From NCBI RefSeq assembly GCF_003018115.1, contig NZ_CP027457.1: 64,000 bases of DNA; one strand, written 5' to 3'. Shown piece by piece: positions 37,222 to 54,289 of the stretch. Within the stretch, counting starts at the first letter, position 1, and every line of letters starts with the position of its first letter. The translations under genes were made by a program, and so were the position numbers. The notes below the pieces were generated by a model that was given only the letters and a program-made list of their open reading frames with translations, did no database searches and had not been told where the DNA came from. This stretch comes from Escherichia coli (GTDB lineage: Bacteria > Pseudomonadota > Gammaproteobacteria > Enterobacterales > Enterobacteriaceae).

Positions 37222-37384
37222 ACATGTATTCCCGGTGAAAAAAGACAAAACCCCGCGCACCGGAAAGATGGCGGGGGATTCACGGAGATAATATCTGTCT
37301 GAAATTATTTGAAATGCAGGTATATGCAGCTAATTTGTATCAGCTTATTGGTACAGTACTAAACCTCATCTGACAGTCCGCTCT

Positions 37385-37399
37385 GTGCCAGGAGCGGAC
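37385..37399 (+). repeat. 15-bp direct repeat, copy 1 (gtgccaggagcggac)
   Basis: Identical 15-mer recurs at 38896-38910; this copy lies inside the hairpin gtccgct-N10-agcggac. Confidence 0.5.
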
Positions 37400-37502
37400 A
37401 TTCCGATATTGAAAAGTAAATTGTCTTGCTGTATTTTTTCAGTCATAAAAATGAATAAGGATTCTCAGATGAGTGAGATATTTGAACTATTCAGTTCTAC
37501 TG

Positions 37503-38228
37503 TCAGTCCTTAAGTTTATTCATAGAAAGCCGCTCTTGGCGTTTAAGCTCATTTAAAGTGAAAAAAGCACATTTATTAGATAAAATATAAATAGTTCCTA
37601 CTAACCGATGTAAGCGCCTCATTTTTTCGGGCATAGAGAATTCAGCATTTTTGACAAACATTAAAGAATCAACCCCAGCAGAGAACATATATTGTAAACT
37701 TTCCATATTAAAAGCCTCTAGTGGATTTACTTCGTTAATATCAATACTATTAACAGACCTCTCTATTTCGAGGTAATCTTCACTTGTCATTGAATAGTCT
37801 ATTTTATGAGCGAATTTATTGCGGATAGAATTCAGCTTAACTAAAGAATTTGCAATTGAGAGAGGTAAACCTAAAGCAACACAGATCTCCAGTTTTGGAG
37901 TAAAATATCGTGATGGTTTAACGAACTGCTCAGTACCAGGCTTCCTAACATTGTTGATGAATACTTCCAAGAAATTCTCAATCAATAGGCTAAGTCTTAG
38001 CAAGACTGATGCTTCGTCATTTATACTTAGTAAAGGTGCAAATTTTTCTGCGTCAAGAAAGAAACCGAGGTCATTATTAATCGCTACATATCCAGTTAGA
38101 TTGTTATTTGACTTCATATTCATAAAAACCTTATCTTGTATATTAGCGGCATATTGTACCATAAATTGAATCGTGGTTTGTTCTAAGAATGGACACAAGA
38201 ACTTCCTCTCCTCACTCATAAGAGACAA
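37503..38228 (-). CDS. AT-rich hypothetical protein with HEPN-like Rx4H motif
   Basis: Track ORF of 241 aa (TTG start); likelier start ATG 38123 (MNMKSNNN..., AAGG RBS); motif LNSIRNKFAHKIDY fits the HEPN Rx4-6H signature; AT-rich codon usage. Confidence 0.45.
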   Translation of the reverse strand: MSLMSEERKFLCPFLEQTTIQFMVQYAANIQDKVFMNMKSNNNLTGYVAINNDLGFFLDAEKFAPLLSINDEASVLLRLSLLIENFLEVFINNVRKPGTEQFVKPSRYFTPKLEICVALGLPLSIANSLVKLNSIRNKFAHKIDYSMTSEDYLEIERSVNSIDINEVNPLEAFNMESLQYMFSAGVDSLMFVKNAEFSMPEKMRRLHRLVGTIYILSNKCAFFTLNELKRQERLSMNKLKD

Positions 38229-38230
38229 CC

Positions 38231-38267
38231 ATACTCAAATCTCCCACATTGCAGGAGATTTGAGTAT
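38231..38267. promoter_or_regulatory. perfect 14-bp inverted repeat in the divergent control region
   Basis: atactcaaatctcc (38231-38244) and ggagatttgagtat (38254-38267) separated by 9 bp; right arm contains the recombinase RBS (aggag) and first two bases of its ATG. Confidence 0.5.
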
Positions 38268-38868
38268 GAACACGTCACCGTGGAACAAAGACCGTATCAT
38301 CGCCCAAAAAAGACCACTTCAGATATCTCATATCTGGGAGATCCGAATCCGGCTTGAACTGGAAGGTAAAACGCGCGATTTAGCTCTGTTCAATATGGCC
38401 CAGGACAGTAAGCTTCGAGGCTGTGATCTGGTCAAACTCAAAGTATCGAATGTGGCATATGGTAGCTCGGTTTCAAGCAGAGAAACGGTGTTGCAACAAA
38501 AAACCGGTAACCTTGTGCAATTCGAGATAACCAAAGGGACAAGAGAAGCTGTTGCTGCATTGATAAAGCTTGGCAATTTGCACAGTAAAGACTTCTTGTT
38601 TCGGTCTCGGGTCGGAACTAATCGGCACATATCAACCCAGCAATACAGCCGAATTTTTCATGGGTGGGTAGAAAAGCTTGGTCTCGAAGCTTCGCTGTAC
38701 AGCACACAATCCATGAGAAGAACAAAACCTTACCTAATCTACAAGAAAACCAAGAATCTCCGGATCATCCAACTTCTGTTGGGTCATAAGAAACTGGAAA
38801 GCACGATCCGTTATCTGGGCATTGAAGTCGATGATGCGTTAGAGACCTCTGAATCGATTGAAGTCTAA
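38266..38868 (+). CDS. short (200 aa) tyrosine recombinase, FimB/FimE-like catalytic-domain-only architecture
   Basis: ATG 38266 with AGGAG RBS; Arg-I in SKLRGCDL, C-terminal LLGHKKLESTIRYLG with candidate catalytic Tyr; no N-terminal core-binding domain. Confidence 0.65.
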   Translation: MNTSPWNKDRIIAQKRPLQISHIWEIRIRLELEGKTRDLALFNMAQDSKLRGCDLVKLKVSNVAYGSSVSSRETVLQQKTGNLVQFEITKGTREAVAALIKLGNLHSKDFLFRSRVGTNRHISTQQYSRIFHGWVEKLGLEASLYSTQSMRRTKPYLIYKKTKNLRIIQLLLGHKKLESTIRYLGIEVDDALETSESIEV

Positions 38869-38895
38869 GGTTGTCAGAGCTGCAATAGCAGCCCC

Positions 38896-38910
38896 GTGCC
38901 AGGAGCGGAC
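38896..38910 (+). repeat. 15-bp direct repeat, copy 2 (gtgccaggagcggac)
   Basis: Identical to 37385-37399; the two copies bracket the HEPN-like gene and the short recombinase. Confidence 0.5.
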
Positions 38911-39026
38911 CTAACTAAGTTCATACAACATTGATTATTGAAGATTAGGTCAGAAATAAATACTTTATTTTGATAATTTAGTTACGTTAGAACACCGCAA
39001 TGTACAACGTAAAAATGAGGAATAAT

Positions 39027-40388
39027 ATGACTCGGAGTGAAATAAACGTCTGGGATGAGAGAAGAGGTACCAATAGTCATCGAGTGGAGGAGATTCGATC
39101 TGAAGCTCAGCACGACCTTTCTCGATTGATTCACTCGTCTGCTTTCAGACGATTACAATCCAAAACACAGGTTCTTGGTCTGGGTGAAAGTGATTTCTAC
39201 CGCACACGACTGACTCATTCTATGGAAGTCGCACAAATCGGTTCAGGTCTTCTTGCTAAGTTGAAAATAAAATATAAAGGTAAAGAGCAAGAGCAATTTT
39301 TACCAGATAACGCTCTTATGCAGGCAGTATGTCTCGCACATGATATTGGACATCCTCCATTTGGTCACGGCGGTGAGGTAGCTCTTAACTACTGTATGCA
39401 GGATTACGGTGGTTTTGAAGGAAACGGTCAGACGCTTCGCATTCTCTCGAAACTAGATAAGTATACCTTAGAACACGGACTCGATCCTACACGCAGACTT
39501 CTGCTAGGCATACTGAAATATCCGGTTAAATACTCGGAGCTAGTGGTTACAAAAGACAGAATCCCGGTCACTATCGGATCACCAAACTGGCTCTTTAAGT
39601 CATCTGATTTTAAACCTCCAAAATGCTATCTAGATTCAGAATGCGATGTTGTAAAATTTGCTCTCTCACCATTTACTGAACAGGATCGGAGGCTTTTTAC
39701 TTCCGTTGAAGATGGTCAAACTAAATCCGATCATAAAAAAGCTTCTTATAAAGCTCTCGATACAACTATAATGGATCTTGCCGATGAAATTTCGTATTCG
39801 CTGCACGATTTGGAGGATGCTATTTCTCTCGGAATGGTGACACGAGAAATGTGGATGGAGCATTTCAGTGAACATGAAACCCTATTTACTAACTGCCATG
39901 GAAAAATATTTTCCGAAACATGCCAATCTGTAGCGGATAGCCTTTTTGGTGAAAGTTACAAGAGAAAAGAGTGCATCGGGATGCTGGTTCACCTGATGAT
40001 TACAAGCGTTGAGCTTATTACAAAGAATCCAGCATTCGAATGTGGCATGCTCAAATATAATGCGGTCCTTCCGGAAGCGGTCGAAGCACTACGGTTGAAA
40101 ATTTTCAAACTGGTCAAAAATAAAGTAATTAAGCATGAAAATGTACAGCAGCTTGAATTCAAGGGACAAAAGTTGATTGTTGAGCTCTTCGGTGTGTTGG
40201 CGAACGATCCGTGTCGGTTTCTACCTGCCTCAACGAGGGAAATTTACGAGCGGCAGACTAGCTTAGACAAGAAGGCTGGTATGCGAGTCATTTGCGACTA
40301 TGTTTCAGGGATGACTGATGACTATGCAACAAAGCTTTATGAGAAGATCCTTATTCCACGCAAAGGGTCTATTTTTGACCATCTCTAA
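39027..40388 (+). CDS. dGTPase-family HD-domain triphosphohydrolase (accessory paralog)
   Basis: 453 aa from ATG 39027 (GAGG RBS); motifs RTRLTHSMEVAQIG, LAHDIGHPPFGHGGE, C-terminal CDYVSGMTDDYA; AT-rich, not at the core dgt locus. Confidence 0.8.
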   Translation: MTRSEINVWDERRGTNSHRVEEIRSEAQHDLSRLIHSSAFRRLQSKTQVLGLGESDFYRTRLTHSMEVAQIGSGLLAKLKIKYKGKEQEQFLPDNALMQAVCLAHDIGHPPFGHGGEVALNYCMQDYGGFEGNGQTLRILSKLDKYTLEHGLDPTRRLLLGILKYPVKYSELVVTKDRIPVTIGSPNWLFKSSDFKPPKCYLDSECDVVKFALSPFTEQDRRLFTSVEDGQTKSDHKKASYKALDTTIMDLADEISYSLHDLEDAISLGMVTREMWMEHFSEHETLFTNCHGKIFSETCQSVADSLFGESYKRKECIGMLVHLMITSVELITKNPAFECGMLKYNAVLPEAVEALRLKIFKLVKNKVIKHENVQQLEFKGQKLIVELFGVLANDPCRFLPASTREIYERQTSLDKKAGMRVICDYVSGMTDDYATKLYEKILIPRKGSIFDHL

Positions 40389-41372
40389 CACGGTAAGAAT
40401 GATACTCTGAGTTCAATTGACCTATAAACATTAACCAAGGCATCTACCAGGGGGGATATCAAATCCCCCCATTCTGAATTTGTTCATGCAGAATCGGTGA
40501 ACGTTCTCATCTGAGCGTTAAACGCCAATAATCATTGATCTACACTGATCATTAATACACCTTAATACCATTAGCGTCTTACTCCGTTATGAGAACAAAC
40601 GCGAACTTCCGCTGTTCGCTCAAAGCAGACCATTCGCTCAGTTAACGCATCAGTGTCGTGCTAGAAGTAGAAGTGGTTAACAACAATGTGAGTTAATCAA
40701 CGGAGAGCAGGTCAACTCTAACCTGTATCAAAAAACAAATGTGTCATAAAGATGCCGCATGCCTTAATTTGAGTATAATTGAGACGGAAGTAGACGGTTT
40801 ATGACTAGATATTGTTGATATATAGCTATTTGAAGAGTTGTAGCGCAAGCGCATAGCCCAAACTAATAACGCTACGCCCCTTATCAAAGAGCGGCAACGA
40901 TGCACAGCTCGCACGAGACAATATTCGCACAAGAAATCAGGTTCGGAAATAACCAGCTCTGGCATGGCGGGGAGAGTATCAATGGTCAGGCTTTCGGTAA
41001 GATGCGGCGGGATGAGGTCGGCGTGGGTTACAGCAGTACAAGGTCGCCCACAGAGGGTAAGCCACAGCGTGGAATCCTCGGTTTCTATCAGGGATTCGGC
41101 GAAGCGGGCGCAGTTGTCGACCAAGACGATGAAATCCATTGTGGCATTATAAGGGAACGAACAATAGATCGAGTAAATCGCAGTCAGGGACAAGGATTGT
41201 AGTCATAGAGAAGTCTCCTGTAACGGTTTTCAGGAGGCTAATCCCGACGCCTGATTTCGCAGGCGCGGAAAGAGAGGATACTGCGACCATTAATCCGCCA
41301 CAAGTCATTTACGTACATAAATCGCGCAGTCAGATCCGACTCCCACTGTAGTTCTTGAACTTGATACCACAT

Positions 41373-41699: not shown

Positions 41700-44138
41700 A
41701 TGGCTATCAAAAAAACCGAACTCTATTCTTCCCTGTGGGCAAGCTGCGACGAACTGCGTGGCGGGATGGACGCCAGCCAGTACAAAGACTATGTACTGAC
41801 CCTGCTGTTTATGAAGTACGTTTCCGATAAGTATAAAGGCGATCCTTACGGGATGATCGTGATACCCAAAGGAGCCAGCTTTGACGATATGGTTGCGCTG
41901 AAAAATGACAAAGAGATCGGCGACAAAATCAACAAAATCATCCACAAGCTGGCGGAAGAGAACGGCCTGAAGGGCGTCATCGACGAAGCCGACTTTAACG
42001 ACGAAGATAAGCTCGGCAAAGGCAAGGAAATGATTGACCGCCTGAGCAAGCTTGTCGGTATCTTTGAAGGGTTAGATCTCTCCAGCAACCGGGCCGAAGG
42101 CGACGATCTGTTGGGCGATGCCTATGAATATCTGATGCGTCACTTCGCAACCGAATCCGGCAAGAGTAAAGGGCAGTTTTACACTCCGGCGGAGGTGTCA
42201 CGTATTCTGGCGAAGGTGATTGGTATTACTCCCGATACGCCGCGAGATGCAACGGTTTATGACCCAACCTGTGGCTCTGGTTCGCTGCTGTTGAAAGTGA
42301 ATGATGAAGCCCGGCGCGGACTATCGATTTTCGGCCAGGAGATGGATAACGCTACCAGTGCACTGGCGCGGATGAACATGATTCTGCATAACAATGCCAC
42401 CGCGAAAATCTGGCAGGGTAATACGCTGAGCGATCCGCAGTGGAAAGAGGCGAACGGCAAACTGAAAGCCTTCGATTTTGCCGTGGCGAACCCGCCTTTT
42501 TCCAATAAAAACTGGACCAACGGGTTGACGCCGAAAAAAGATCCGTTTGAACGCTTCGGCTGGGGCATTCCGCCGGAGAAAAACGGCGATTATGCTTTTT
42601 TGCTGCATATCATTAAAAGCCTGAAAAGTACCGGCAAAGGCGCGGTGATCCTGCCCCATGGCGTACTGTTTCGCGGTAACGCCGAGGCAAATATCCGTGA
42701 AAATCTAATCAAGCAGGGCTATATCAAAGGCGTTATTGGTTTGCCGGCCAACCTGTTTTACGGCACCGGCATCCCGGCGTGCATTATTGTGATTGATAAA
42801 GAGCACGCCCACAGCCGCAAAGGCATTTTTATGATCGACGCCAGTCGGGGCTTTATCAAAGATGGCAACAAGAACCGCCTGCGTAGCCGAGATATTCACC
42901 GCATTGTGGACGTGTTCAACCATCAGCGAACGGTGCCGGGCTACAGCCGGATGGTGCCCTCCAGCGAGATCGCCGGAAATGATTACAACCTGAATATTCC
43001 TCGCTATATCGAGAGCGGCGAGCCGGAAGATTTGCACGATCTGACCGCGCACTTACAGGGCGGTATTCCAGCACGCGATGTGGATGCTTTGCAGGATTAC
43101 TGGCGGGTATTCCCTGCCCTGCGCAACGTGCTGTTTGCTGACGACCGTTCCGGTTACTGTCGGGCGCAGGTGAACGCGCAGCAGGTGAAACCAACCATTC
43201 TGGCACATCAGGAGTTTAAGGATTTTGCCACCCGCAGCCTGCTACCGTTTAAAGCGTGGGTGAAAGAGGCAAGTCTGGAAGAGATTCGCAAAGGTGATAA
43301 ACCCAAAGCGCTGATCCACGATATCAGCGAGATGTTGCTTGTGCAGTACGCCAACAGTGAGTTGCTGAACAAGTACAGCGTGTACCAGATCCTGATGGAT
43401 TACTGGGCTGATGTCATGCAGGACGATGTGTATGTGATTATGCAGGATGGCTGGCAAGCCGCCGCGCAAATCCGCGAGCTTCAACCGGTGAAAGGCAAAG
43501 ATGGCAAAAACATCTGGAAAGAAACGCACGATTTCGAGTTTACCAAACAGCGCTACAAGGCCGATGTGCTACCCCGTTCACTAGTGGAAATTCGCTGCTT
43601 CCCGGAACTGCTGGATACGTTGAACCGCGCGCAGGAGCGCAGTGAAGAAGCCAGTCGTCAGCTAGCGGAACTCATCGAGGAGCAGGCAGGGGAAGAGGAT
43701 CTGCTGGCTGAGGCGAAGAACGATAAAGATAAGGTGACGCAAAAGCTGGTGAATGCCCGTCTGGCACAGTTGAAGAAAACCCCTGCCGACCCAGATGAGC
43801 TGGCAGTGCTGAACCGCTGTCTGGCGCTGATTAAGGCCGAGGCCAGTGCGAAAAAAGCGCTGAAAGCCGCACAGGAAGCGTTGGATCGAGCGGTATTTAA
43901 ACATTATCCCACGCTGGATGAAACAGCGATTAAAACGCTGGTAGTGCAGGATAAGTGGCTGGCAACGTTGCAGGCAGGAATCAAGGCGGAGATTGAGCGT
44001 ATTACCCAGCAACTGGCGTCGCGCGTAAAGGAGCTGGAAGAGCGTTATGCTGAACCGTTGCCAGCGCTTGAAGCCTCCGTTGAGGCGTTGAGCGAGAAAG
44101 TGGCCGGGCATTTGCGGGCGATGGGGCTGGAGTGGTGA
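41700..44138 (+). CDS. hsdM: type I restriction-modification N6-adenine DNA methyltransferase subunit, long form
   Basis: 812 aa; HsdM N-terminal domain, SAM motif DPTCGSGSLL, catalytic NPPF (VANPPFS); about 300-aa C-terminal coiled-coil-like extension. Confidence 0.9.
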   Translation: MAIKKTELYSSLWASCDELRGGMDASQYKDYVLTLLFMKYVSDKYKGDPYGMIVIPKGASFDDMVALKNDKEIGDKINKIIHKLAEENGLKGVIDEADFNDEDKLGKGKEMIDRLSKLVGIFEGLDLSSNRAEGDDLLGDAYEYLMRHFATESGKSKGQFYTPAEVSRILAKVIGITPDTPRDATVYDPTCGSGSLLLKVNDEARRGLSIFGQEMDNATSALARMNMILHNNATAKIWQGNTLSDPQWKEANGKLKAFDFAVANPPFSNKNWTNGLTPKKDPFERFGWGIPPEKNGDYAFLLHIIKSLKSTGKGAVILPHGVLFRGNAEANIRENLIKQGYIKGVIGLPANLFYGTGIPACIIVIDKEHAHSRKGIFMIDASRGFIKDGNKNRLRSRDIHRIVDVFNHQRTVPGYSRMVPSSEIAGNDYNLNIPRYIESGEPEDLHDLTAHLQGGIPARDVDALQDYWRVFPALRNVLFADDRSGYCRAQVNAQQVKPTILAHQEFKDFATRSLLPFKAWVKEASLEEIRKGDKPKALIHDISEMLLVQYANSELLNKYSVYQILMDYWADVMQDDVYVIMQDGWQAAAQIRELQPVKGKDGKNIWKETHDFEFTKQRYKADVLPRSLVEIRCFPELLDTLNRAQERSEEASRQLAELIEEQAGEEDLLAEAKNDKDKVTQKLVNARLAQLKKTPADPDELAVLNRCLALIKAEASAKKALKAAQEALDRAVFKHYPTLDETAIKTLVVQDKWLATLQAGIKAEIERITQQLASRVKELEERYAEPLPALEASVEALSEKVAGHLRAMGLEW

Positions 44139-45445
44139 TGGTGGATTTAATGGTGAATGAGCAACGATCAGGTACGGCGGGGAAAGATGTGCCTGCGGGG
44201 TATAAGCTGACTGAGGTGGGGGTGATTCCTGAGGATTGGGTAGTAATCTCTATTGATGACTGTACAACCAAAGTTGGTAGTGGAAAAACACCAACTGGTG
44301 GAGCATCTGTTTATATTGATAGCGGACGCCCTTTTGTCCGTAGCCAAAATGTTGATTGGGGAAGATTAGATCTCGCCGATGTCGTACATATTACAGATGA
44401 AACCCATAACACATTCTCTGGTTCTGAAATTCAGCAAGATGATGTTTTACTCAACATAACGGGAGCATCTATCGGCCGATGCGCTAAAGCTGATTTTAGG
44501 GTTATAGGTGGTAATGTTAACCAACATGTTTGCATCATCAGAACAGAGGCAAAAAAACTCTCCCCATCCTTACTGGTTGAATTAATCAATTCAAATTATG
44601 GACAAAACCAGATTGATAGTTATCAAGCCGGAGGAAACAGAGAAGGACTGAATTTTTCTCAAGTTAAAAATCTTAAGTTTGCTATTACACCAAACTCCCT
44701 TGAACAAACGGAAATTGTCAGAACATTAAATGATATTAATGCATTCACTCTCGCTCTGGAAAACTTAATTGCTAAAAAACAGGCCATAAAAGCCGCTGCT
44801 ATGCAACAACTACTCACCGGTAAAACCCGTTTGCCGCAGTTTGCGTTGCGCAAAGATGGATCTGCTAAGAGATATAAAAAGAGCAAGTTGGGGGAGACTC
44901 CAGAAGATTGGGCAGTTAATAATATTGGAGATTTATTCTCCATTACCGCAGGAGGAGATTTAAGACAGTCTGAATTCTCTAATATTCAATCTGAAAAACA
45001 TCTTTACCCTATTTATTCCAATGCAATTAGTCATTATGGTTTATATGGCTATTGCCAGAGTTATGATTATGTTGGTGACTATCTAACAATCACTGCGAGG
45101 GGAGGAATCGGCCATGCCGTGGCAAGAAAAGGAAGATTCTGTGCAATTGGACGATTATTAGTTCTTAGTCCAAAAGGAGATTCAAACGTAAAATTTTATG
45201 AAGGGTATATAAACCAATACTTATCATTTGCAAATGAGAGCACTGGAGTCCCTCAACTTACAGCTCCTCAAGTTGCAAAATATCCGGTTGTTTCCCCATG
45301 CATTGAAGAACAAACCGCCATCGCCACCATCCTCTCCGATATGGACAAGGAAATTCAGACCCTGCAACAACGTCTGGACAAAACCCGTCAGCTTAAACAG
45401 GGGATGATGCAGGAGCTGTTAACCGGGAAAACACGCTTAATATAA
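44132..45445 (+). CDS. hsdS: type I R-M specificity subunit
   Basis: 437 aa from GTG overlapping hsdM stop by 7 nt; two target-recognition domains separated by conserved repeats (LLTGKTRL twice). Confidence 0.9.
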
Positions 45446-45456
45446 AAGGGAAACCT

Positions 45457-46103
45457 ATGACTACAGCGCCAGCCTCAATCCGCAAAAAGCCCTGATCTGG
45501 CGTATCGTCCATCGGGACAATATCCCGTGGATTCTGGACAATGGTCTGCACTGCGGCAACAGCCCGGTGCAGGCTGCTAACTGGATCAATATCGGCAACC
45601 CGGAGCTTATCGGCAAGCACGCCGGACATCCGGTACCTGTCGGGACGGGCGGGACACTGCGTGACTATGTGCCATTTTATTTTACCCCCTTCTCGCCAAT
45701 GCTGATGAACATCCACAGCGGACGTGGCGGCATTAAGCAACGCCCCAATGAAGAGATCGTTATTCTGGTCAGCAGCCTGCGGCACGTGGCAGCACACGAC
45801 GTGCCCTTCGTGTTTACCGACAGCCATGCTTACTATAACTGGACCAACTACTACACCAGTCTGGATAGTCTGGACCAGATCGACTGGCCCATTTTGCAGG
45901 CACGGGACTTTCGCCGCGATCCAGACGATCCGGCTAAATTTGAACGCTATCAGGCAGAGGCGCTAATCTGGCAACACTGCCCGATCTCGCTGCTGGATGG
46001 GATAATTTGTTACAGCGAAGAGGTCAGGTTACAATTAGAACAATGGTTGTTTCAGCGTAATCTAACAATGTCCGTTCACACACGGGCTGGATTGGTACTT
46101 CTC
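45457..46103 (+). pseudogene. darT: DarT-like (DUF4433) ssDNA ADP-ribosyltransferase, N-terminus disrupted by frameshift
   Basis: ATG 45457 with AAGGG RBS reads [12 protein letters not shown] then stop; one extra A in the A5 run 45484-45488 would give [34 protein letters not shown]... continuous with track ORF 45567; candidate catalytic Glu in [10 protein letters not shown]. Confidence 0.6.
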
Positions 46104-47171
46104 ATGATCACATATACACAAGGCAATTTACTGGACGCACCGGTGGAAGCTCTGGTGAATACGGTTAATACCGTCGGTGTCATGGGGAAAGGCATCGCGT
46201 TGATGTTTAAAGAGCGCTTCCACGAAAATATGAAAGCCTATGCCCTCGCCTGCAAACAAAAGCAGGTGATCACCGGCAAAATGTTCATTACCGAAACCGG
46301 GGAACTGATGGGACCGCGCTGGATTGTTAATTTTCCGACCAAACAGCACTGGCGCGCTGACTCCCGCATGGGGTGGATTGAAGATGGCTTACAAGACTTA
46401 CGTCGATTTTTGATTGAAGAGAACGTGCAATCCATCGCCATTCCACCGCTGGGCGCAGGCAACGGTGACTTGAACTGGCCGGACGTTCGGGCGCAGATTG
46501 AATCTGCCCTTGGCGACCTTCAGGACGTTGATATCCTGATTTACCAACCAACTGAAAAATACCAGAACGTTGCCAAAAGCACTGGCGTAAAAAAGCTCAC
46601 TCCCGCCAGAGCCGCCATCGCTGAACTGGTGCGTCGCTACTGGGTATTGGGGATGGAGTGCAGCCTACTGGAAATCCAGAAACTGGCCTGGCTGTTACAA
46701 CGCGCCCTTAAGCAGCATCAACAGGACGATATCCTCAAACTGCGGTTTGAAGCTCACTATTATGGCCCCTATGCGCCCAATCTGAACCATCTGCTTAATG
46801 CGCTGGACGGCACCTATCTTAAAGCCGAGAAACGCATCCCGGACAGCCAACCGCTGGATGTGATCTGGTTTAACGATCAGAAAAAAGAACACGTTAATGC
46901 GTATCTGAACAGCGAAGCCAGAGAGTGGCTACCGGCGCTGGAGCAGGTCAGCCAGTTAATTGACGGCTTTGAATCGCCGTTTGGTCTGGAGCTGCTGGCA
47001 ACCGTAGACTGGTTGCTGAGCCGTGGCGAATGTCAACCAACACTGGATTCCGTTAAGGAAGGGCTGCACCAGTGGCCTGCGGGCGAACACTGGGCCAGCC
47101 GTAAGTTGAGGCTGTTTGATAATAATAATCTGCAATTTGCCATTAACCGCGTAATGGAGTTCCATTGCTGA
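46104..47171 (+). CDS. darG: DarG-like macrodomain antitoxin
   Basis: Starts [39 protein letters not shown] with [10 protein letters not shown] macrodomain motifs plus a C-terminal domain; in this sequence in frame with the DarT-like region, no intervening stop. Confidence 0.7.
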
Positions 47172-47189
47172 GGGTTTAAGGAGCGCCTT

Positions 47190-50100
47190 TTGAGTACCGT
47201 GGGCCAGCGCGAACGCGCCACACAGCAGCGTCTGATTCAGTTTTTTGTTGAAGATTTAGGTTACCGCCATCTGAGTCACCGCACCGGGTACACCGGGAAC
47301 AGCAACATCGACACTAATATACTGAGCGCGTGGCTAAAACGGCGCGGCGTTAATGATACGTTGATCACCCGGGCGTTGCGGCAACTGGATTCCGCCGCCG
47401 CTCTGGGCGAAGGCAAAAAACTCTATTACGCCAATAAAGAGGTCTATCGCCTGCTACGTTACGGCGTGAAAGACAAAGAAGGCGCAGGCGAGCAGAACCA
47501 AACCGTGTGGCTGATTGACTGGGCCAACCCACAAGCCAATGATTTCGCCATCGCCGATGAGGTGACGGTCAAAGGCGAGTACTGCAAGCGCCCGGATCTG
47601 GTGCTGTACGTTAACGGCATTGCGCTGGGCGTGATTGAACTTAAGCGTTCGTCAGTGCACGTCAGCGAAGGCATCCGGCAGAATCTCGATAATCAAAAGA
47701 AAACCTTTATCCGCGATTTCTTCACCACTATGCAGTTAGTGATGGCGGGCAACGATACGCAGGGCCTGCGCTACGGCACCATCGAAACCCCGGAAAAATA
47801 CTATCTGGAGTGGAAAGAAGATAATCCAGGCGACTATACACATAAACTCGACTTTCATTTAAGTCGTCTGTGTAGCAAATCCAGGCTGTTGGATATCGTC
47901 CATAATTACATTGCCTTTGATGTCGGAGTGAAAAAACTCTGCCGCCATAATCAGTTCTTCGGCGTCGAGGCGGCTAAACAACATATTGCCCGTCGTGAAG
48001 GCGGTATTATCTGGCACACACAGGGATCGGGTAAAAGCCTGACGATGGTCTGGCTGGCGAAGTGGATCCGTGAAAATGTGCCAAACTCCCGCGTGTTGAT
48101 TGTGACTGACCGCACCGAACTGGATGAACAGATCGAAAGCGTGTTTATGGGCGTGAATGAAGATATTTATCGCACCTCCAGCGGCAACGATCTTATCGCA
48201 ACGCTCAATCATCCTAACCCGTGGCTCATTTGCTCGCTGGTGCATAAATTTGGTCGTCGCAGCGAAGCTGAAGACAATGCGGCTACCGACGCCTTTATCA
48301 CCGAATTACAGCAGTCCCTGACGAAAACATTCCGCGCCAAAGGCGATCTGTTTGTTTTTGTGGACGAGTGCCACCGCACACAATCCGGCAAGCTGCATAA
48401 CGCCATGACTGCCATTCTGCCGGACGCCCTGTTTATCGGTTTTACCGGCACACCGCTGATGAAGAAAGATAAGAAGAAGTCGGTTGAGGTGTTCGGCCCT
48501 TATATCCATACCTATAAATTTGATGAAGCGGTGGCCGACGGTGTGGTGCTGGATCTGCGCTACGAGGCACGCGATATTGACCAGTATCTGACATCAGAGA
48601 AAAAGGTCGATGACTGGTTTGAAGCCAAGACTCGCGGTTTGTCGAATTTAGCCAGGACCCAGCTTAAGCAAAAGTGGGGATCAATGCAGAAGCTGCTCTC
48701 CAGCAAGTCGAGGCTGGAGCAGATCGTTAACGACATTTTGCTGGATATGGATACCCGTCCACGCCTGATGGACGGGCGCGGCAACGCCATGCTGGTATGC
48801 AGCAGTATCTATCAAGCCTGCAAGGTTTACGAGATGTTCAGCCAGACCGAGCTGGCAGGAAAAGTAGCGATTGTGACCAGCTATCGCCCCGATGCCGCCA
48901 GCATCAAAGGCGAAGAAACGGGCGAAGGGTTAACGGAGAAACTCTCTAAACACGCCACCTATCGTAAAATGTTGGCTGACTATTTTGAACAAAGTGAAGA
49001 GAAGGCCGCCGCACGCATTACCGAGTTCGAGCGGGAAGTGAAACAGCGTTTTATTGAAGAGCCGGGGCAAATGCGCCTGCTTATCGTGGTGGATAAGCTG
49101 CTGACTGGCTTTGACGCGCCGTCCGCCACCTATCTCTACATTGATAAAACCATGACCGACCATACGCTGTTTCAGGCGATTTGTCGGGTGAACCGGCTGG
49201 ACGGTGAGGATAAAGAGTATGGCTATATTATCGATTATAAAGATCTGTTCCGTTCGCTGGATAAAGCGATTACCGATTACACCACGGGCGCGTTTGATGA
49301 TTACGATCGGGACGATGTGGCCGGGTTGCTGAAAGACAGGCTGGAGCAGGCGCAACTGGATCTCGACAGCGCGCTGGAGATGGTTCGCAGCTTATGTGAA
49401 CCCGTCAAAACCCCGCGCAGCCTGCAGGACTATCAGCACTATTTTTGCGGTGAATCAGGAGAGAATCAGACTTCGTTAAACGAAAAAGAGGCGCTGCGCC
49501 TGACATTTTACCAGTGCGTCGCCCGTCTGCTACGCGCTTATGCCAGCATCGCCAATGAAATGCCGGAAGCAGGCTACACTGCCGAAGAGGTAGAGAGCAT
49601 TCGCGCCGAAGTCGCTGAATTCGAAAAACTGCGCTATGAGATTAAGCTGACCAGCGGCGATCTTCTGGATATGAAGCGCTTTGAACCCGCTATGCGTCAT
49701 TTACTGGATATGTATGTTCGCGCCGATGATAGCGAAGTGCTGATGGATTTTGAAGAGTTAAGTCTGATTGAACTGATTGTCGAGAAAGGCTTGGCGGCGA
49801 CCGTCGCCCTGCCGGATGATATCCGTAATAATCAGGATGCGATGGCGGAAACCATCGAAAACAACGTGCGCAAAACCATCGTGGATGAAAACCCGGTTAA
49901 CCCAAAATACTATGGACGCATGTCGCAGCTGCTGGATGAACTGATTACCCTTCGCCGACAAAATGCGCTCAATTATCAGCAGTATCTGGAACGTATCCGC
50001 GATTTGTGTAAACAAGTCATCCGCCCGGAGCAAACCGCCGGAGCGTGCTACCCTGCCACCATGGATACACAAGCAAAGCGCGCCTTCTATGATAACTTCG

Positions 50101-50285
50101 GCCACGACGAGGTACTGGCGACCCGCATAGATACGACGATTCGCTATACCAAAAGGGCAGAGTGGATTGGCGATCGTTTTAAAGAACGGGAAATTGCCAA
50201 CGCATTACGTGAAGAGACCGCCAGCTATAATATTGATATTGATGAGGTGATAGCGCTTGCCCGTCAGCAGAAGGAATATCACTGA
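47190..50285 (+). CDS. hsdR: type I R-M restriction endonuclease/translocase subunit
   Basis: 1031 aa from TTG 47190 with AAGGAG RBS; PD-(D/E)xK region then SF2 helicase motifs (TQGSGKS, DECHRTQ). Confidence 0.9.
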   Translation: MSTVGQRERATQQRLIQFFVEDLGYRHLSHRTGYTGNSNIDTNILSAWLKRRGVNDTLITRALRQLDSAAALGEGKKLYYANKEVYRLLRYGVKDKEGAGEQNQTVWLIDWANPQANDFAIADEVTVKGEYCKRPDLVLYVNGIALGVIELKRSSVHVSEGIRQNLDNQKKTFIRDFFTTMQLVMAGNDTQGLRYGTIETPEKYYLEWKEDNPGDYTHKLDFHLSRLCSKSRLLDIVHNYIAFDVGVKKLCRHNQFFGVEAAKQHIARREGGIIWHTQGSGKSLTMVWLAKWIRENVPNSRVLIVTDRTELDEQIESVFMGVNEDIYRTSSGNDLIATLNHPNPWLICSLVHKFGRRSEAEDNAATDAFITELQQSLTKTFRAKGDLFVFVDECHRTQSGKLHNAMTAILPDALFIGFTGTPLMKKDKKKSVEVFGPYIHTYKFDEAVADGVVLDLRYEARDIDQYLTSEKKVDDWFEAKTRGLSNLARTQLKQKWGSMQKLLSSKSRLEQIVNDILLDMDTRPRLMDGRGNAMLVCSSIYQACKVYEMFSQTELAGKVAIVTSYRPDAASIKGEETGEGLTEKLSKHATYRKMLADYFEQSEEKAAARITEFEREVKQRFIEEPGQMRLLIVVDKLLTGFDAPSATYLYIDKTMTDHTLFQAICRVNRLDGEDKEYGYIIDYKDLFRSLDKAITDYTTGAFDDYDRDDVAGLLKDRLEQAQLDLDSALEMVRSLCEPVKTPRSLQDYQHYFCGESGENQTSLNEKEALRLTFYQCVARLLRAYASIANEMPEAGYTAEEVESIRAEVAEFEKLRYEIKLTSGDLLDMKRFEPAMRHLLDMYVRADDSEVLMDFEELSLIELIVEKGLAATVALPDDIRNNQDAMAETIENNVRKTIVDENPVNPKYYGRMSQLLDELITLRRQNALNYQQYLERIRDLCKQVIRPEQTAGACYPATMDTQAKRAFYDNFGHDEVLATRIDTTIRYTKRAEWIGDRFKEREIANALREETASYNIDIDEVIALARQQKEYH

Positions 50286-51001
50286 TGCCAATCATGCAAA
50301 TAGGCTCGTTACACTTGCTGGTCAACCGTAAGGCGATTAAGAATCTGCATATCAGCGTGCTGCCGCCTGATGGCAAAGTCCGCGTTTCAGCGCCGGAACA
50401 TATGACGGAGACGGCGATTCGTATGGCGGTTGCTTCACGCTTTCGCTGGATCAGAAAACAGCAGCAGGATTTCGCCAGACAGCCTCGTCAATCAGAGAGG
50501 GAAATGGTCAGCGGAGAGTGCCACTATCTTTGGGGCCGAAGATATCGCCTACTTGTGATTGAGCGTCACGGGCGTCACGAAGTAAAAGTTGCGGGAAATA
50601 ATAAGCTCCAGCTTTATGTTCAACCGGGAACCCGTGATGAAAATAAGGCATTGGCGTTAAGTGAATTTTATCGACATGAACTAAAACAGCAGGTGGCTAA
50701 GCTTCTACCTGAATGGCAGGACCGAATCGGTGTTCCCCTAACATTCTGGGGCATCAAAAAGATGAAAACCTTTTGGGGCACCTGTAACACTACAACAAAA
50801 CGAATCTGGCTCAATCTGGAGCTAATTAAGAAGCCGCCGGAGTGTCTGGAGTATATTCTGGTGCATGAACTGGTTCATCTTCTGGAACGTCACCATAATG
50901 CTCGCTTCCGGTTGCATATGGATCGGTTTATTCCTGACTGGCGTGAGCGTCGGGATTTGTTAAATAATATGCCGTTAGCGTTTGAGGCATGGGAGTATTG
51001 A
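50285..51001 (+). CDS. YgjP-like (DUF45/M48-type) zinc metallopeptidase
   Basis: 238 aa; HExxH in HELVHLLERHH; ATG overlaps hsdR stop (TGATG). Confidence 0.75.
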   Translation: MPIMQIGSLHLLVNRKAIKNLHISVLPPDGKVRVSAPEHMTETAIRMAVASRFRWIRKQQQDFARQPRQSEREMVSGECHYLWGRRYRLLVIERHGRHEVKVAGNNKLQLYVQPGTRDENKALALSEFYRHELKQQVAKLLPEWQDRIGVPLTFWGIKKMKTFWGTCNTTTKRIWLNLELIKKPPECLEYILVHELVHLLERHHNARFRLHMDRFIPDWRERRDLLNNMPLAFEAWEY

Positions 51002-51103
51002 TTGAGCCTGTAACTGTTTTTTGTCCATAAATTAACCTTCATTTGATGCTGGATTGAACATATCAAAATCAGACAATTACACAAATCTATGTACAGGCTC
51101 AAC

Positions 51104-51168
51104 TCCTGCCATGGAACGTAGTACTCACCAATAAGTAAGCATCAATACGGCGCTCCGTTAACGCTTAC
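51104..51168 (+). mobile_element. IS66-family right-end fragment
   Basis: About 65 bp near-identical to the last 65 bp of the complete IS66 copy (53833-53897), including end of tnpC coding sequence and terminal repeat, same orientation. Confidence 0.5.
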
Positions 51169-51452
51169 TAGCATGGTTATCTCCTTAAAAAATTGAGGCG
51201 ACAACTATGCTGACACAGGGGGTTACTCACCGATCTCCTTCACGGTAATACGCAGTTCTTCAGAACCCGCCTCCGATACCAGCCTGGCGGTCGCCCCGGC
51301 GCAACAGAATAAATCAACCATCGTCAGACTGCGATCATTCGTAATGTTCCGGGGACCTCATCTTCAGTAAGCGTAAACTGACCGCCGTATGTAGCCATTA
51401 AGCCAGTATTGGTAACGTAGGTGCCCACCTTTTCAACTAGTGGACACCTGTT

Positions 51453-51878
51453 ATGGAACAGAAAATATTATCCTCAGAACCCCGCAGATCATTTTCAAAT
51501 GAGTTTAAACTTCAAATGGTTAAACTGGCTTCACAACCAGGAGCCTCTGTTGCCCGTATTGCCCGGGAACACGATATCAATGATAACCTCCTGTTCAAAT
51601 GGCTCAGGCTCTGGCAGAACGAAGGGCGTATATCGCGGCGTCTTCCGGTAACAATCTCTTCTGGCGCTGGCGTTGAATTATTACCTGTTGAGATAACGCC
51701 TGATGAGCAGAAAGAGCCTATGGCGGCTCTTACTCCGCTTTTATCCACTCCTTCACAAAGCACAGTCAGTGCCAGTTCCTGTAAAGTTGAGTTCCGCCAC
51801 GGTAACATGACGCTGGAAAATCCTTCACCAGAGCTGCTCACGGTGTTGATCCGTGAACTGACCGGGAGGGGACGATGA
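51453..51878 (+). CDS. IS66 accessory protein TnpA (orf1)
   Basis: 141 aa (MEQKILSSEPRRSFSNEFKLQMVKLA...). Confidence 0.8.
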   Translation: MEQKILSSEPRRSFSNEFKLQMVKLASQPGASVARIAREHDINDNLLFKWLRLWQNEGRISRRLPVTISSGAGVELLPVEITPDEQKEPMAALTPLLSTPSQSTVSASSCKVEFRHGNMTLENPSPELLTVLIRELTGRGR

Positions 51879-52225
51879 TCTCGCTCCCATCAGGTACCCG
51901 TATCTGGCTCGTTGCCGGCGTTACCGATATGCGTAAATCCTTCAACGGACTGGGAGAACAGGTACAACATGTGCTGAATGATAATCCCTTCTCCGGTCAC
52001 CTGTTTATCTTCCGTGGCCGACGGGGTGACACCGTCAAAATTCTTTGGGCTGATGCTGATGGTCTGTGCCTGTTCACCAAACGCCTGGAGGAAGGCCAGT
52101 TTATCTGGCCTGCGGTACGTGACGGCAAGGTATCCATTACCCGCTCGCAACTGGCAATGCTCCTCGATAAGCTGGACTGGCGTCAGCCAAAAACATCCAG
52201 CCGTAACTCACTGACAATGTTGTAA
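51875..52225 (+). CDS. IS66 accessory protein TnpB (orf2)
   Basis: 116 aa, ATGA overlap with tnpA. Confidence 0.85.
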   Translation: MISLPSGTRIWLVAGVTDMRKSFNGLGEQVQHVLNDNPFSGHLFIFRGRRGDTVKILWADADGLCLFTKRLEEGQFIWPAVRDGKVSITRSQLAMLLDKLDWRQPKTSSRNSLTML

Positions 52226-52255
52226 AAAACTCCTGACCGCATTATAAAAACGGTC

Positions 52256-53869
52256 ATGAGTCAGAAATACCTCATTCGCATCGCAGAGCTGGAAAGATTG
52301 CTCTCTGAGCAGGCTGAAGCCCTCCGTCAGAAAGACCAGCAACTGAGTCTGGTTGAAGAGACGGAAGCCTTCCTGCGCTCTGCACTGACACGTGCCGAAG
52401 AAAAGATCGAAGAAGATGAACGGGAAATAGAACATCTGCGGGCTCAGATAGAAAAACTGCGCCGGATGCTGTTCGGTACCCGTTCTGAAAAACTGCGTCG
52501 TGAAGTTGAACTGGCTGAGGCTCTGCTGAAACAACGTGAACAGGACAGCGATCGTTACAGTGGGCGGGAAGACGATCCTCAGGTTCCCCGCCAGTTGCGA
52601 CAGTCGCGCCATCGTCGTCCGTTACCGGCACACCTTCCCCGTGAAATACACCGCCTGGAGCCAGAAGAAAGCTGTTGCCCGGAGTGTGGCGGTGAACTGG
52701 ATTATCTGGGGGAAGTCAGCGCTGAACAGCTGGAACTGGTGAGCAGTGCCCTGAAAGTGATCCGCACAGAACGGGTAAAAAAAGCCTGTACAAAATGTGA
52801 CTGTATTGTTGAAGCACCGGCGCCGTCCCGCCCGATAGAGCGTGGTATCGCGGGCCCCGGATTACTTGCCCGCGTGTTAACGGGAAAATACTGCGAACAT
52901 CTGCCACTGTATCGTCAGAGTGAAATCTTTGCCCGCCAGGGTGTCGAACTGAGCCGGGCCTTACTCTCCAACTGGGTTGACGCGTGCTGCCAGTTAATGA
53001 CACCGGTGAATGATACCCTGTACCGTTATGTAATGAACACCCGCAAGGTTCACACTGATGACACACCGGTAAAGGTACTGGCACCGGGTCAGAAAAAGGC
53101 GAAAACAGGGCGTATCTGGACGTATGTCCGGGATGATCGCAATGTGGGTTCGTCATCTCCTCCAGCGGTCTGGTTCGCGTACTCGCCGAACCGGCAGGGG
53201 AAACACCCGGAGCAACACCTCCGCCCCTTCCGGGGTATCCTGCAGGCGGATGCGTTCACAGGTTACGACAGGTTGTTCAGTGCAGAACGTGAAGGTGGTG
53301 CACTGACAGAAGTTGCGTGCTGGGCCCATGCCCGGCGAAAAATCCACGATGTATACATCAGCAGCAAAAGTGCGACGGCAGAAGAAGCCCTGAAGCGAAT
53401 CAGTGAACTGTACGCCATCGAGGATGAAATACGGGGATTACCGGAGTCAGAGCGTCTTGCCGTCAGGCAGCAGCGAAGCAAAGTGTTACTGACGTCGCTG
53501 CATGAATGGATGGTGGAGAAGAATGGTACGCTGTCGAAAAAATCCAGACTGGGCGAAGCGTTCAGCTATGTACTGAATCAGTGGGATGCCCTCTGTTATT
53601 ACAGTGATGACGGTCTGGCGGAGGCGGATAATAATGCTGCGGAAAGAGCGCTTCGTGCAGTCTGTCTCGGAAAGAAAAACTTTATGTTCTTTGGCAGCGA
53701 TCACGGCGGCGAGCGTGGAGCACTGTTGTACGGGCTGATCGGCACCTGCCGTCTGAACGGTATCGATCCGGAAGCGTATCTGCGCCATATCCTGAGCGTA
53801 CTGCCGGAATGGCCTTCCAACCGAGTTGATGAACTCCTGCCATGGAACGTAGTACTCACCAATAAATAA
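52256..53869 (+). CDS. IS66-family transposase TnpC
   Basis: 537 aa with N-terminal coiled coil, CxxC zinc motif (CPECGG) and DDE core. Confidence 0.9.
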   Translation: MSQKYLIRIAELERLLSEQAEALRQKDQQLSLVEETEAFLRSALTRAEEKIEEDEREIEHLRAQIEKLRRMLFGTRSEKLRREVELAEALLKQREQDSDRYSGREDDPQVPRQLRQSRHRRPLPAHLPREIHRLEPEESCCPECGGELDYLGEVSAEQLELVSSALKVIRTERVKKACTKCDCIVEAPAPSRPIERGIAGPGLLARVLTGKYCEHLPLYRQSEIFARQGVELSRALLSNWVDACCQLMTPVNDTLYRYVMNTRKVHTDDTPVKVLAPGQKKAKTGRIWTYVRDDRNVGSSSPPAVWFAYSPNRQGKHPEQHLRPFRGILQADAFTGYDRLFSAEREGGALTEVACWAHARRKIHDVYISSKSATAEEALKRISELYAIEDEIRGLPESERLAVRQQRSKVLLTSLHEWMVEKNGTLSKKSRLGEAFSYVLNQWDALCYYSDDGLAEADNNAAERALRAVCLGKKNFMFFGSDHGGERGALLYGLIGTCRLNGIDPEAYLRHILSVLPEWPSNRVDELLPWNVVLTNK

Positions 53870-53909
53870 GCGTCAATACGGTGCTCCGTTGACGCTTACA
53901 GCTTTCCCA

Positions 53910-54284
53910 CTATTTCTTGATTCCTAAACGGAACATATCAGTTGGGAATAAAGGTTGTATTATCACTTCATCATTAAAAATGAATAATTTGGGCGATAAA
54001 GCTGTTACGTCATAGATATTTTCAGCGATTAATCTTAGATTTGACCTAAAAACTGGAATACTTGCATCATCTGCAAAGACAAACATGTCATCGTTTTTTA
54101 CAGAGTTTGCACACAATAGCTCATCAAAACTCTCATAATCAGAATGCCAGATCTCTGACCAAGTAACACTTCCTTTCGCGAGAGGGTACTTATTTAAAAT
54201 GCCCAGAGCCTCCTGCTGAGCCAGCCCCTCTACTATATTAAAATCAGCACTCAGTGCTTCCCGACACTCATCAAATAAAGTCAT
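53910..54284 (-). CDS. putative immunity protein of orphan toxin module
   Basis: 124 aa acidic protein immediately downstream of the orphan CdiA-CT. Confidence 0.5.
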   Translation of the reverse strand: MTLFDECREALSADFNIVEGLAQQEALGILNKYPLAKGSVTWSEIWHSDYESFDELLCANSVKNDDMFVFADDASIPVFRSNLRLIAENIYDVTALSPKLFIFNDEVIIQPLFPTDMFRLGIKK

Positions 54285-54289
54285 TTGCT

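Follow-up and report, generated by a model that had tools for sequence, protein, structure and literature searches.

A gene in a genomic island of Escherichia coli very probably encodes, judging from its sequence and its relatives, a stand-alone defense dGTPase of the Sp-dGTPase/E. coli G177 family that is carried on a mobile cassette. The gene occupies positions 39027..40388 (+ strand) of the window, by which we mean the entire 64-kb stretch of DNA analyzed here. It belongs to this family, retains an intact active site, stands alone as a single-gene unit, and has an accessory, mobile distribution among neighboring defense genes. As far as the gene is concerned, the finding is already known: it is a RefSeq-named member of a validated defense family. 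The gene itself adds little beyond confirming a rare accessory member of a validated nucleotide-depletion defense family and documenting that it is mobile, with copies in a prophage and in a genomic island. The element that bounds its cassette, described further below, could matter more than the gene.

The coding sequence lies in an uninterrupted open reading frame (39000..40388, + strand), with a GAGGAA ribosome-binding site just 5' of the ATG at 39027, which is also the start in RefSeq and in close homologs. Its translation of 453 aa carries the Pfam HD and HD_assoc domains. The original prediction had described an HD-domain dGTPase-like protein with intact metal and substrate motifs, and all three motifs that it named (RTRLTHSMEVAQIG, HDIGHPPFGH, and CDYVSGMTDDYA) are present verbatim. 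Alignment to the housekeeping E. coli Dgt, for which PDB 4x9e served as the reference sequence, bears out this description. The predicted metal ligands are H64, H105, D106, and D253, and the predicted catalytic dyad is H114/E117. The residues aligned to Dgt Q53, V54, R66, H69, H117, D118, H126, E129, N186, D268, Y272, D276, and E400 are all conserved, and D106 is the equivalent of D101 in Sp-dGTPase. The dGTPase profile matches reached E-values of 1e-144 to 1e-168, so that a family match by chance is ruled out. The gene is AT-rich, as had been noted, with a GC content of 42.2% and a GC3 of 38.1% compared to 49.8% GC for the whole window. A sigma-70 promoter scan of the 131-bp leader 5' of the gene gave no match on the + strand. 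On the other side, a terminator-like hairpin (GGGGGG-ATATCAAAT-CCCCCC, then a T-rich tail; 40450..40483, + strand) starts 62 nt past the stop codon. This hairpin was read directly from the sequence and was not listed by a simple terminator scan; inspection of the Serratia and Cronobacter dGTPase cassettes revealed a hairpin and T-rich tail at the equivalent position.

Profile and structure searches consistently assigned the protein to the defense family. It scored 560.5 bits against NCBIfam NF041026, “anti-phage deoxyguanosine triphosphatase” (cut-off 400), 558.6 bits against NF003701 (cut-off 383), and 478 bits against the PADLOC dGTPase profile, and it matches the phage protein family phrog_21998 over its full length. 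The housekeeping Dgt equivalog model (NF003429/PRK04926) gave 149.3 bits, far below its cut-off of 405. The term “divergent”, which had been applied to the protein, is apt relative to core Dgt but not relative to the defense family. Among PDB entries, the best match was 9p8w (E 1.4e-152, 512 bits), with E. coli Dgt (4x9e) far behind at E 4e-28.

Sequence identities and phylogeny led to the same assignment. BLASTP gave 56% identity to Sp-dGTPase over residues 10-453 (57% over MAFFT columns); the identity is 42% to 7lwz and, counted over aligned columns, ~32% to E. coli Dgt. P0032 served as a stand-in for the validated G177 dGTPase of E. coli, of which 133 residues were available; the two differ at one position across those residues, and the identity of our protein to P0032 is 67%. 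In a neighbor-joining tree, the protein falls in an Enterobacterales clade adjoining the G177 clade, both within the Sp-dGTPase-containing family, with 7lwz and Dgt as long outgroup branches. Clustering with housekeeping Dgt orthologs, the outcome that would have spoken against a defense role, was therefore not seen, and the protein groups with validated defense dGTPases. Its identity of 56-57% to Sp-dGTPase also places it in the defense-adjacent subset of homologs, delimited by at least 45% identity over at least 90% of the length. Of the homologs with at least 45% identity to Sp-dGTPase, 53% adjoin defense systems, compared to 10% of more distant ones (bioRxiv 10.1101/2021.04.26.441389). These comparisons support the gene being an intact, genuine member of the described anti-phage dGTPase family.

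The genomic setting was examined next to these family relationships. The window covers an E. coli genomic island at the tRNA-Ser gene adjoining ghrA. Positions 19027-53899 are 99.4% identical to the chromosome of E. coli 2014C-4135, in which the dGTPase gene is 100% identical. Along the island, the genes for Ag43, CbtA/YeeU, an antirestriction protein, and a YeeP-like GTPase are followed by a gene at 37503..38219 (- strand), a 200-aa tyrosine recombinase (38266..38868, + strand; Pfam Phage_integrase, phrog_216), the dGTPase, an IS-derived HTH fragment, and a type I restriction-modification (R-M) operon. This operon (41700..51001, + strand; PADLOC and annotation) comprises hsdM, hsdS, a damaged darT, darG, hsdR, and an M48 peptidase gene, and lies outside the dGTPase cassette. 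The damage to the neighboring DarT shows that parts of the island are decaying. To speak of a defense cluster is fair, with the dGTPase beside a type I R-M operon that has an embedded DarTG. The gene had, more precisely, been placed between an Abi-like gene and a type I R-M system. The R-M side of this description stands, but the direct upstream neighbor is the recombinase gene, and the Abi-like label for the hypothetical protein at 37503..38219 is weakly supported: its HEPN_RiboL-PSP match is marginal (i-E 8e-4), it matches phrog_5712 (157 bits), and the PADLOC and NCBIfam profiles gave no match.

The gene is rare within the species. It was detected in 16 of 5,426 complete E. coli genomes (0.3%), in all of which it is annotated as “anti-phage deoxyguanosine triphosphatase”, and it occupies two unrelated places, the tRNA-Ser island and the Rac prophage. 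Five genomes share the island arrangement, and 11 carry an allele of 97.6% identity; the Rac placement of this allele is that of strain S40, one of the 11 carriers, in which it sits inside the Rac prophage downstream of replication genes. A further copy, 93.8% identical, is found on a Klebsiella lambdoid fragment that was deposited as a plasmid. The suggestion that the gene is accessory was hence correct, and it is also mobile. Orthologs with 74-86% identity reside among defense genes in other genera, adjoining a Bub ubiquitin-like system in Serratia, a retron RT with a PRTase effector in Cronobacter, and TA/Dpd-like genes in Brenneria. Genes of the G177 type reside on IncY/P1-like plasmids and in one phage of 95 kb. 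Together, the family scores, the tree, the accessory and mobile distribution, and the defense neighborhoods argue for the proposed role as a defense dGTPase.

All E. coli genomes are expected to carry dgt, and a synteny look-up found the dgt region rearranged relative to K-12 in the matching strain. We considered whether the gene might encode an enzyme akin to core Dgt that serves dNTP-pool housekeeping or mutation avoidance, hitch-hikes on mobile DNA, and has no anti-phage role. We regard this as improbable: the gene is present in 0.3% of complete genomes at two unrelated loci rather than at a fixed core locus, the copies examined are always on prophage or island DNA beside defense genes, the Dgt equivalog model failed (149 versus 405), and the protein falls in the clade of at least 45% identity that is enriched beside defense systems. 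These observations have to be set against a fold and catalytic residues that are the same as in Dgt, a family whose enzymes are constitutively active in vitro (PMC12265719), and the possibility that more distant homologs are housekeeping enzymes (bioRxiv 10.1101/2021.04.26.441389).

A second alternative, to which we assign a similarly low probability, is that the gene serves its carrier prophage, either through superinfection exclusion for Rac, lambdoid, or P1-like elements or by tuning dNTPs during prophage replication. Most copies are indeed in prophages or phage-plasmids, at moron positions, and the protein belongs to a PHROG family (phrog_21998). However, such a service would be mechanistically the same dGTP-depletion defense, viewed from the prophage, and in the window the gene sits in a non-phage island adjoining an R-M operon. 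A Clover-type CloA, that is, a dGTPase restrained by the signal of a partner nucleotidyltransferase and activated by dTTP, is very improbable, since the CloA structures (9p8s-v) scored only ~79-86 bits in the PDB search versus 512 for Sp-dGTPase (9p8w), despite a fold and active site common to both, and no CloB-like NTase was found in or beside the cassette in the six contexts examined.

Our preferred reading remains a stand-alone defense dGTPase on a mobile cassette, and homology suggests how it may act. The HD-domain protein would form a hexamer with a divalent metal at H64, H105, D106, and D253, and the H114/E117 dyad, together with the metal, would convert dGTP to deoxyguanosine and triphosphate. 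The dGTP pool would thereby be emptied, leaving incoming phage DNA without replication, and no partner protein would be required. The gene would move alone, in a cassette of 1.7 kb that also supplies its 5' leader and terminator; at least three contexts in E. coli and Klebsiella apparently received it: the tRNA-Ser island, the Rac prophage, and the lambdoid prophage fragment.

Work on the homologs provides the basis for this model. Sp-dGTPase from Shewanella putrefaciens (PDB 9P8W) is a hexamer that is alone sufficient for rapid dGTP hydrolysis, and enzymes of this type are constitutively active in vitro (PMC12265719). Four of the six dGTPases cloned by Tal et al. protect E. coli, the D101A substitution in the HD motif of Sp-dGTPase abolishes defense, and in expressing cells dGTP is gone and deoxyguanosine is elevated; T7 escapes through mutations in genes 5.7/5.5 and 0.7 (bioRxiv 10.1101/2021.04.26.441389). 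These escape mutations point to phage shut-off of the host RNA polymerase. By analogy, the protein studied here would share the enzymatic activity, the hexameric state, the protection against phages, and any coupling to the shut-off of host transcription by phages. Its closest homolog among those cloned by Tal et al. is from Enterobacter sp. ODB01 (91% identity, with 133 residues available), which is outside the protective four (bioRxiv 10.1101/2021.04.26.441389). The ODB01 sequence that was synthesized starts at the counterpart of residue 98, which leaves it without H64 and R61; this truncation, and the loss of H64 in particular, probably explains its negative result.

We then characterized the cassette itself. 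The interval 38896..40607 (+ strand) is the sole DNA common to the island and the Rac copy (97.1% identity), and it is also present at full length, with 93.8% identity, in the Klebsiella lambdoid fragment. No second gene was found within this shared 1.7-kb cassette. Its edges coincide with an unannotated element of ~96 nt that consists of two inverted 24-nt lox/sfx-like sites, GTCCGCTC-TGTGCCAG-GAGCGGAC. At the left edge, the right half of the element is present (38884..38940, + strand), and its core GTGCCAGGAGCGGAC at 38896-38910 marks both the start of the cassette and the end of the adjoining recombinase module to its left. At the right edge lies a full but degenerate copy (40608..40703, + strand), with the right-site core GTGCTAGAAGTAGAA at ~40655. 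A third copy (37360..37409, + strand) has an intact hairpin-like site of the same composition at 37376-37399 and bounds a module with the HEPN-like gene and the recombinase. The 15-mer GTGCCAGGAGCGGAC occurs exactly twice in the 64-kb window (38896 and 37385), compared to 0.08 occurrences expected. In five of the six independent contexts, the dGTPase is flanked on both sides by copies of the element.

The recombinase gene lies between two sites of the element, a degenerate one on the left (38199-38226) and one on the right (38887-38910). More than 1,600 E. coli genomes have this module, which ends at 38909/38910 with the final bases of the 15-mer, and the cargo downstream of it varies. In CFT073, for example, it is followed by a different cargo. 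We also considered phase-variable control of the dGTPase by this upstream recombinase, which is of the size of FimB, and rejected it, as no inverted repeats bracketing a promoter-sized segment were found 5' of the gene. The similarity of the 200-aa recombinase to FimB reflects a generic relation only (25% over 75 aa).

Iterative nhmmer searches, which yielded 324 matches in 1.4 Mb of fetched loci, provided a consensus of ~96 nt for the element: TCCGCTCCTGGCACAGAGCGGAC - 18 nt - GTCCGCTTTGTGCCAGGAGCGGAC - GTTACTAAC...TTAATCAATGG. It comprises a pair of 24-nt units in inverted orientation with 18 nt between them; within each unit, as in lox or FRT, inverted arms of 8 bp enclose an asymmetric spacer of 8 bp. 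Compensatory substitutions are almost absent from the hairpin arms, and invariance is highest in the spacer, with positions G51, G53, C54, and A56 ~99% invariant. An Rfam scan of the three copies in the window gave no match. The scarcity of compensatory changes, the invariant spacer, and the Rfam result favor a site on DNA over a folded RNA, and on these grounds we rejected a structured RNA.

The element is widespread. It was found in at least 1,134 of the 5,426 E. coli genomes, with a median of one place per genome among carriers, and it is annotated in none. The exact 24-mer, with a chance expectation of ~0.01, was found across Enterobacterales genera and in Idiomarina, and the 15-mer GTGCCAGGAGCGGAC, with conserved flanks around it, was present in at least 120 IMG/VR contig stretches. 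Some genera have arrays of five copies, 0.6-3.6 kb apart, namely Citrobacter koseri (spacing ~0.7-1.2 kb), Erwinia persicina, and Pantoea. In C. koseri and E. persicina, each interval of the array contains at least one co-oriented ORF (GNAT, MFS, oxidoreductase); no recombinase was found among the three ORFs checked upstream of the C. koseri array. In phage 899 the element occupies the P2 Z/fun position, and it was also found at one end of an e14/Mu-like prophage, adjoining a RES-domain gene. An association of the element with the 200-aa recombinase was rejected, given that the recombinase is present at only 3-4 of the 120 viral loci listed and at one of 38 genome loci.

Comparing the element's surroundings across 109 distinct contexts revealed where sequences part. 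Pairs with one flank in common but not the other part close to the 15-mer, within a few bases: 13 of 24 such pairs diverge at the first base past it, and the converse pairs do so at -1 to -12. We infer that the overlap between flanks is too short for ordinary RecA-mediated recombination. The cargo downstream is extremely diverse, with 78 ORFs falling into 59 clusters. At least eight of 20 sampled cargo genes match defense models, and ~60% of the sample is without known defense annotation. The matches include full-length PD-T4-3 (456 bits), PD-T7-1 (527 bits), and PDC-S32 (115 bits), the last being the neighbor of the dGTPase in Rac, as well as a DarT fusion, a TIR protein, and an HNH protein; further cargo comprises GNAT and MFS genes. 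Overall, the element brackets very diverse cargo, often defense genes, in prophages, islands, and chromosomal arrays of Enterobacterales.

The element may be a REPIN-like repeat or may serve site-specific recombination. With a REPIN or REP doublet it shares two inverted short palindromic repeats with a short spacer between them. REPINs also come in many dispersed copies per genome, with a cognate RAYT transposase; for our element the median is one place per E. coli carrier genome, with arrays of five in some genera. With the shufflon sfx site it shares an asymmetric layout in which the left arm varies and the 7-bp core and the right arm are conserved: the left arms vary among contexts, GTGCCAG+GAGCGGAC is retained, and the core GTGCCAG matches the sfx core GTGCCAA at six of seven positions. 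The right arms, however, are unrelated (TCCGGTACGTGG in sfx versus GAGCGGAC... here), and shufflon sites flank invertible pilV segments whereas the sites described here bound cassettes. The definition of sfx, a core GTGCCAA with the right arm TCCGGTNNNTGG and a neighboring Rci recombinase, does not extend to our element; Rci was rejected as the recombinase for the sfx-like site, the nested 200-aa recombinase having no significant similarity to R64 Rci. An integron attC site was rejected because the tail GTTACTA does not fit the R''/R' core GTTRRRY, and an integron array has IntI at its head, whereas the three ORFs checked upstream of the Citrobacter array include no recombinase. ERIC was rejected as well, with ERIC primer sequences essentially absent at element-bearing loci. 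No match to the 15-mer GTGCCAGGAGCGGAC was found in the papers searched. Sites of this kind at P2 variable loci may be the subject of Nilsson et al. 2004 (Mol Biol Evol 21:1), judging by its title.

We tentatively raise the possibility, which we consider somewhat doubtful, that single-gene cassettes, the dGTPase among them, are exchanged at the 24-nt site GTCCGCTC-TGTGCCAG-GAGCGGAC, which mostly comes as an inverted pair of ~96 nt, by an integron-like site-specific system that has not been properly described before. The partners in such an exchange are proposed to be prophages (P2-like, lambdoid, and e14/Mu-like), P4/CP4-type islands, and chromosomal arrays of Enterobacterales, and the 200-aa tyrosine recombinase nested in the element at 38199-38910 is a candidate for the enzyme involved. 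If the element is a true recombination site, it would offer a mechanism for shuffling single-gene defense systems between prophage “hotspots” and Enterobacterales defense islands. It would also serve as a sequence handle for new cargo genes, being useful for such discovery because ~60% of the sampled cargo lacks a known defense annotation.

The dGTPase can be compared with several known systems. Human SAMHD1 is likewise an HD-domain dNTP triphosphohydrolase and restricts viruses through dNTP depletion, but it has a broad dNTP specificity and is an allosterically regulated tetramer; no alignable sequence similarity has been reported (bioRxiv 10.1101/2021.04.26.441389). The Clover system CloA/CloB is closer in role, as CloA is a defense dGTPase of the same fold, but CloA assembles as an octamer, requires dTTP for activation, and is kept in check by p3diT, which CloB makes (PMC12265719). 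In comparison, the gene studied here is without CloB, and its product has low sequence similarity to CloA. The housekeeping E. coli Dgt (PDB 4X9E/6OIY) shares the HD-domain dGTP triphosphohydrolase fold, the metal ligands, and the H/E dyad; it differs in its length of 505 aa with extra insertions, in being encoded by a core gene that is not defense-associated, and in its residues R433 and R442, which are not conserved in the 453-aa protein. Sp-dGTPase (Shewanella putrefaciens CN-32; Tal et al. 2022; PDB 9P8W) matches the same family model, has identical catalytic and substrate residues, and is also a single-gene system of similar length (462 aa versus 453 aa here). It differs in host and context, and the oligomeric state and phage range of the protein studied here are those suggested by its homologs. 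Finally, the E. coli G177 dGTPase comes from the same species, has the same stand-alone architecture on mobile DNA, and shares 67% identity (via P0032), but it forms a separate clade. The G177 type is found mainly on IncY/P1-like phage-plasmids, whereas the type studied here is carried by Rac/lambdoid prophages and the tRNA-Ser island.

The segment carrying the dGTPase gene is delimited by an unannotated boundary element of ~96 nt, comprising two mutually inverted 24-nt sites resembling lox and sfx sites, each reading GTCCGCTC-TGTGCCAG-GAGCGGAC. Copies of this element lie at 37360-37409, 38884-38940, and 40608-40703 in the window, and further copies were detected at other loci, among them L002 (the Rac prophage of strain S40), L004, L007, L128, L129, L148, and L157. 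Across Enterobacterales, in prophages, islands, and chromosomal arrays, the element delimits cassettes that each carry a single cargo gene, and homology between contexts ends at most a few bases from its 15-nt core.

The same slot holds different cargo in E. coli BA22372 (L006). The island there otherwise matches the window, with the gene for the YeeP-like GTPase on one side of the slot and, on the other, the type I restriction-modification (R-M) operon that is also present in the window. Instead of the HEPN-like gene, the recombinase, and the dGTPase, it contains a ParA-family gene and two hypothetical genes (L006 6267-9068), likewise bounded by copies of the element's motif. In the Rac prophage of strain S40, the next cassette after the dGTPase carries a gene (L002 13773-14666) with a full-length PADLOC match to the candidate system PDC-S32 (115 bits). 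Just past it, 112 nt from the 5' region of the recombinase survive (L002 14723-14834) and are 90% identical to window positions 38204-38315.

The recombinase in the window is a 200-aa tyrosine recombinase nested in a module (38199-38910) between two sites of the element, the left one degenerate and the right one intact. We found the residues R51, K79, R150/151, H174, and Y183, with a glutamine in place of the first histidine. More than 1,600 E. coli genomes carry the module, with variable downstream cargo; in CFT073, for example, the cargo 3' of the module belongs to the ETEC_3214 family. The recombinase start codon is itself overlapped by a perfect 15-nt palindrome (38230-38244/38254-38268).

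The neighboring gene at 37503-38219 (minus strand) was labeled "Abi-like" in the original prediction; it has only a marginal match to Pfam HEPN_RiboL-PSP (i-E 8e-4) and none among PADLOC and NCBIfam models. Its product matches the phage family phrog_5712 (157 bits), which has no annotated function, and the gene might encode an unrecognized HEPN-type effector. Between the cassette and hsdM, Rfam matches at positions 41205-41279 (minus strand) fell below threshold for isrK (39 bits, threshold 50) and for the c4 antisense-RNA targets a1/b1 (38 bits, threshold 46.7), and homologous sequence is annotated as "ash family protein" in other E. coli genomes. This stretch is probably left over from an immunity region of the P1/P4 type.

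Within the R-M operon, darT (45445-47171) is damaged relative to BA22372, where it is intact: an 8-nt deletion directly 3' of hsdS removed its start codon, and an additional T at 46092 joined the DarT frame to DarG, producing a 534-aa ORF from a GTG at 45567. DarG looks intact. At its distal end (51000-55700 and 59824-63963) the island is decaying. Here IS66-family copies, one fewer than in strain 2014C-4135, come after the operon, and past them are a gene for CDI immunity and a truncated gene for a VENN-motif pre-toxin.

Among previously assayed dGTPases, the Enterobacter sp. ODB01 construct starts MQAVCLAHD... (Supplementary Table S5, bioRxiv 10.1101/2021.04.26.441389), equivalent to residue 98 of the window dGTPase, and therefore lacks the first metal-binding histidine. 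This truncation may explain why ODB01 is absent from the four clones shown to protect E. coli.
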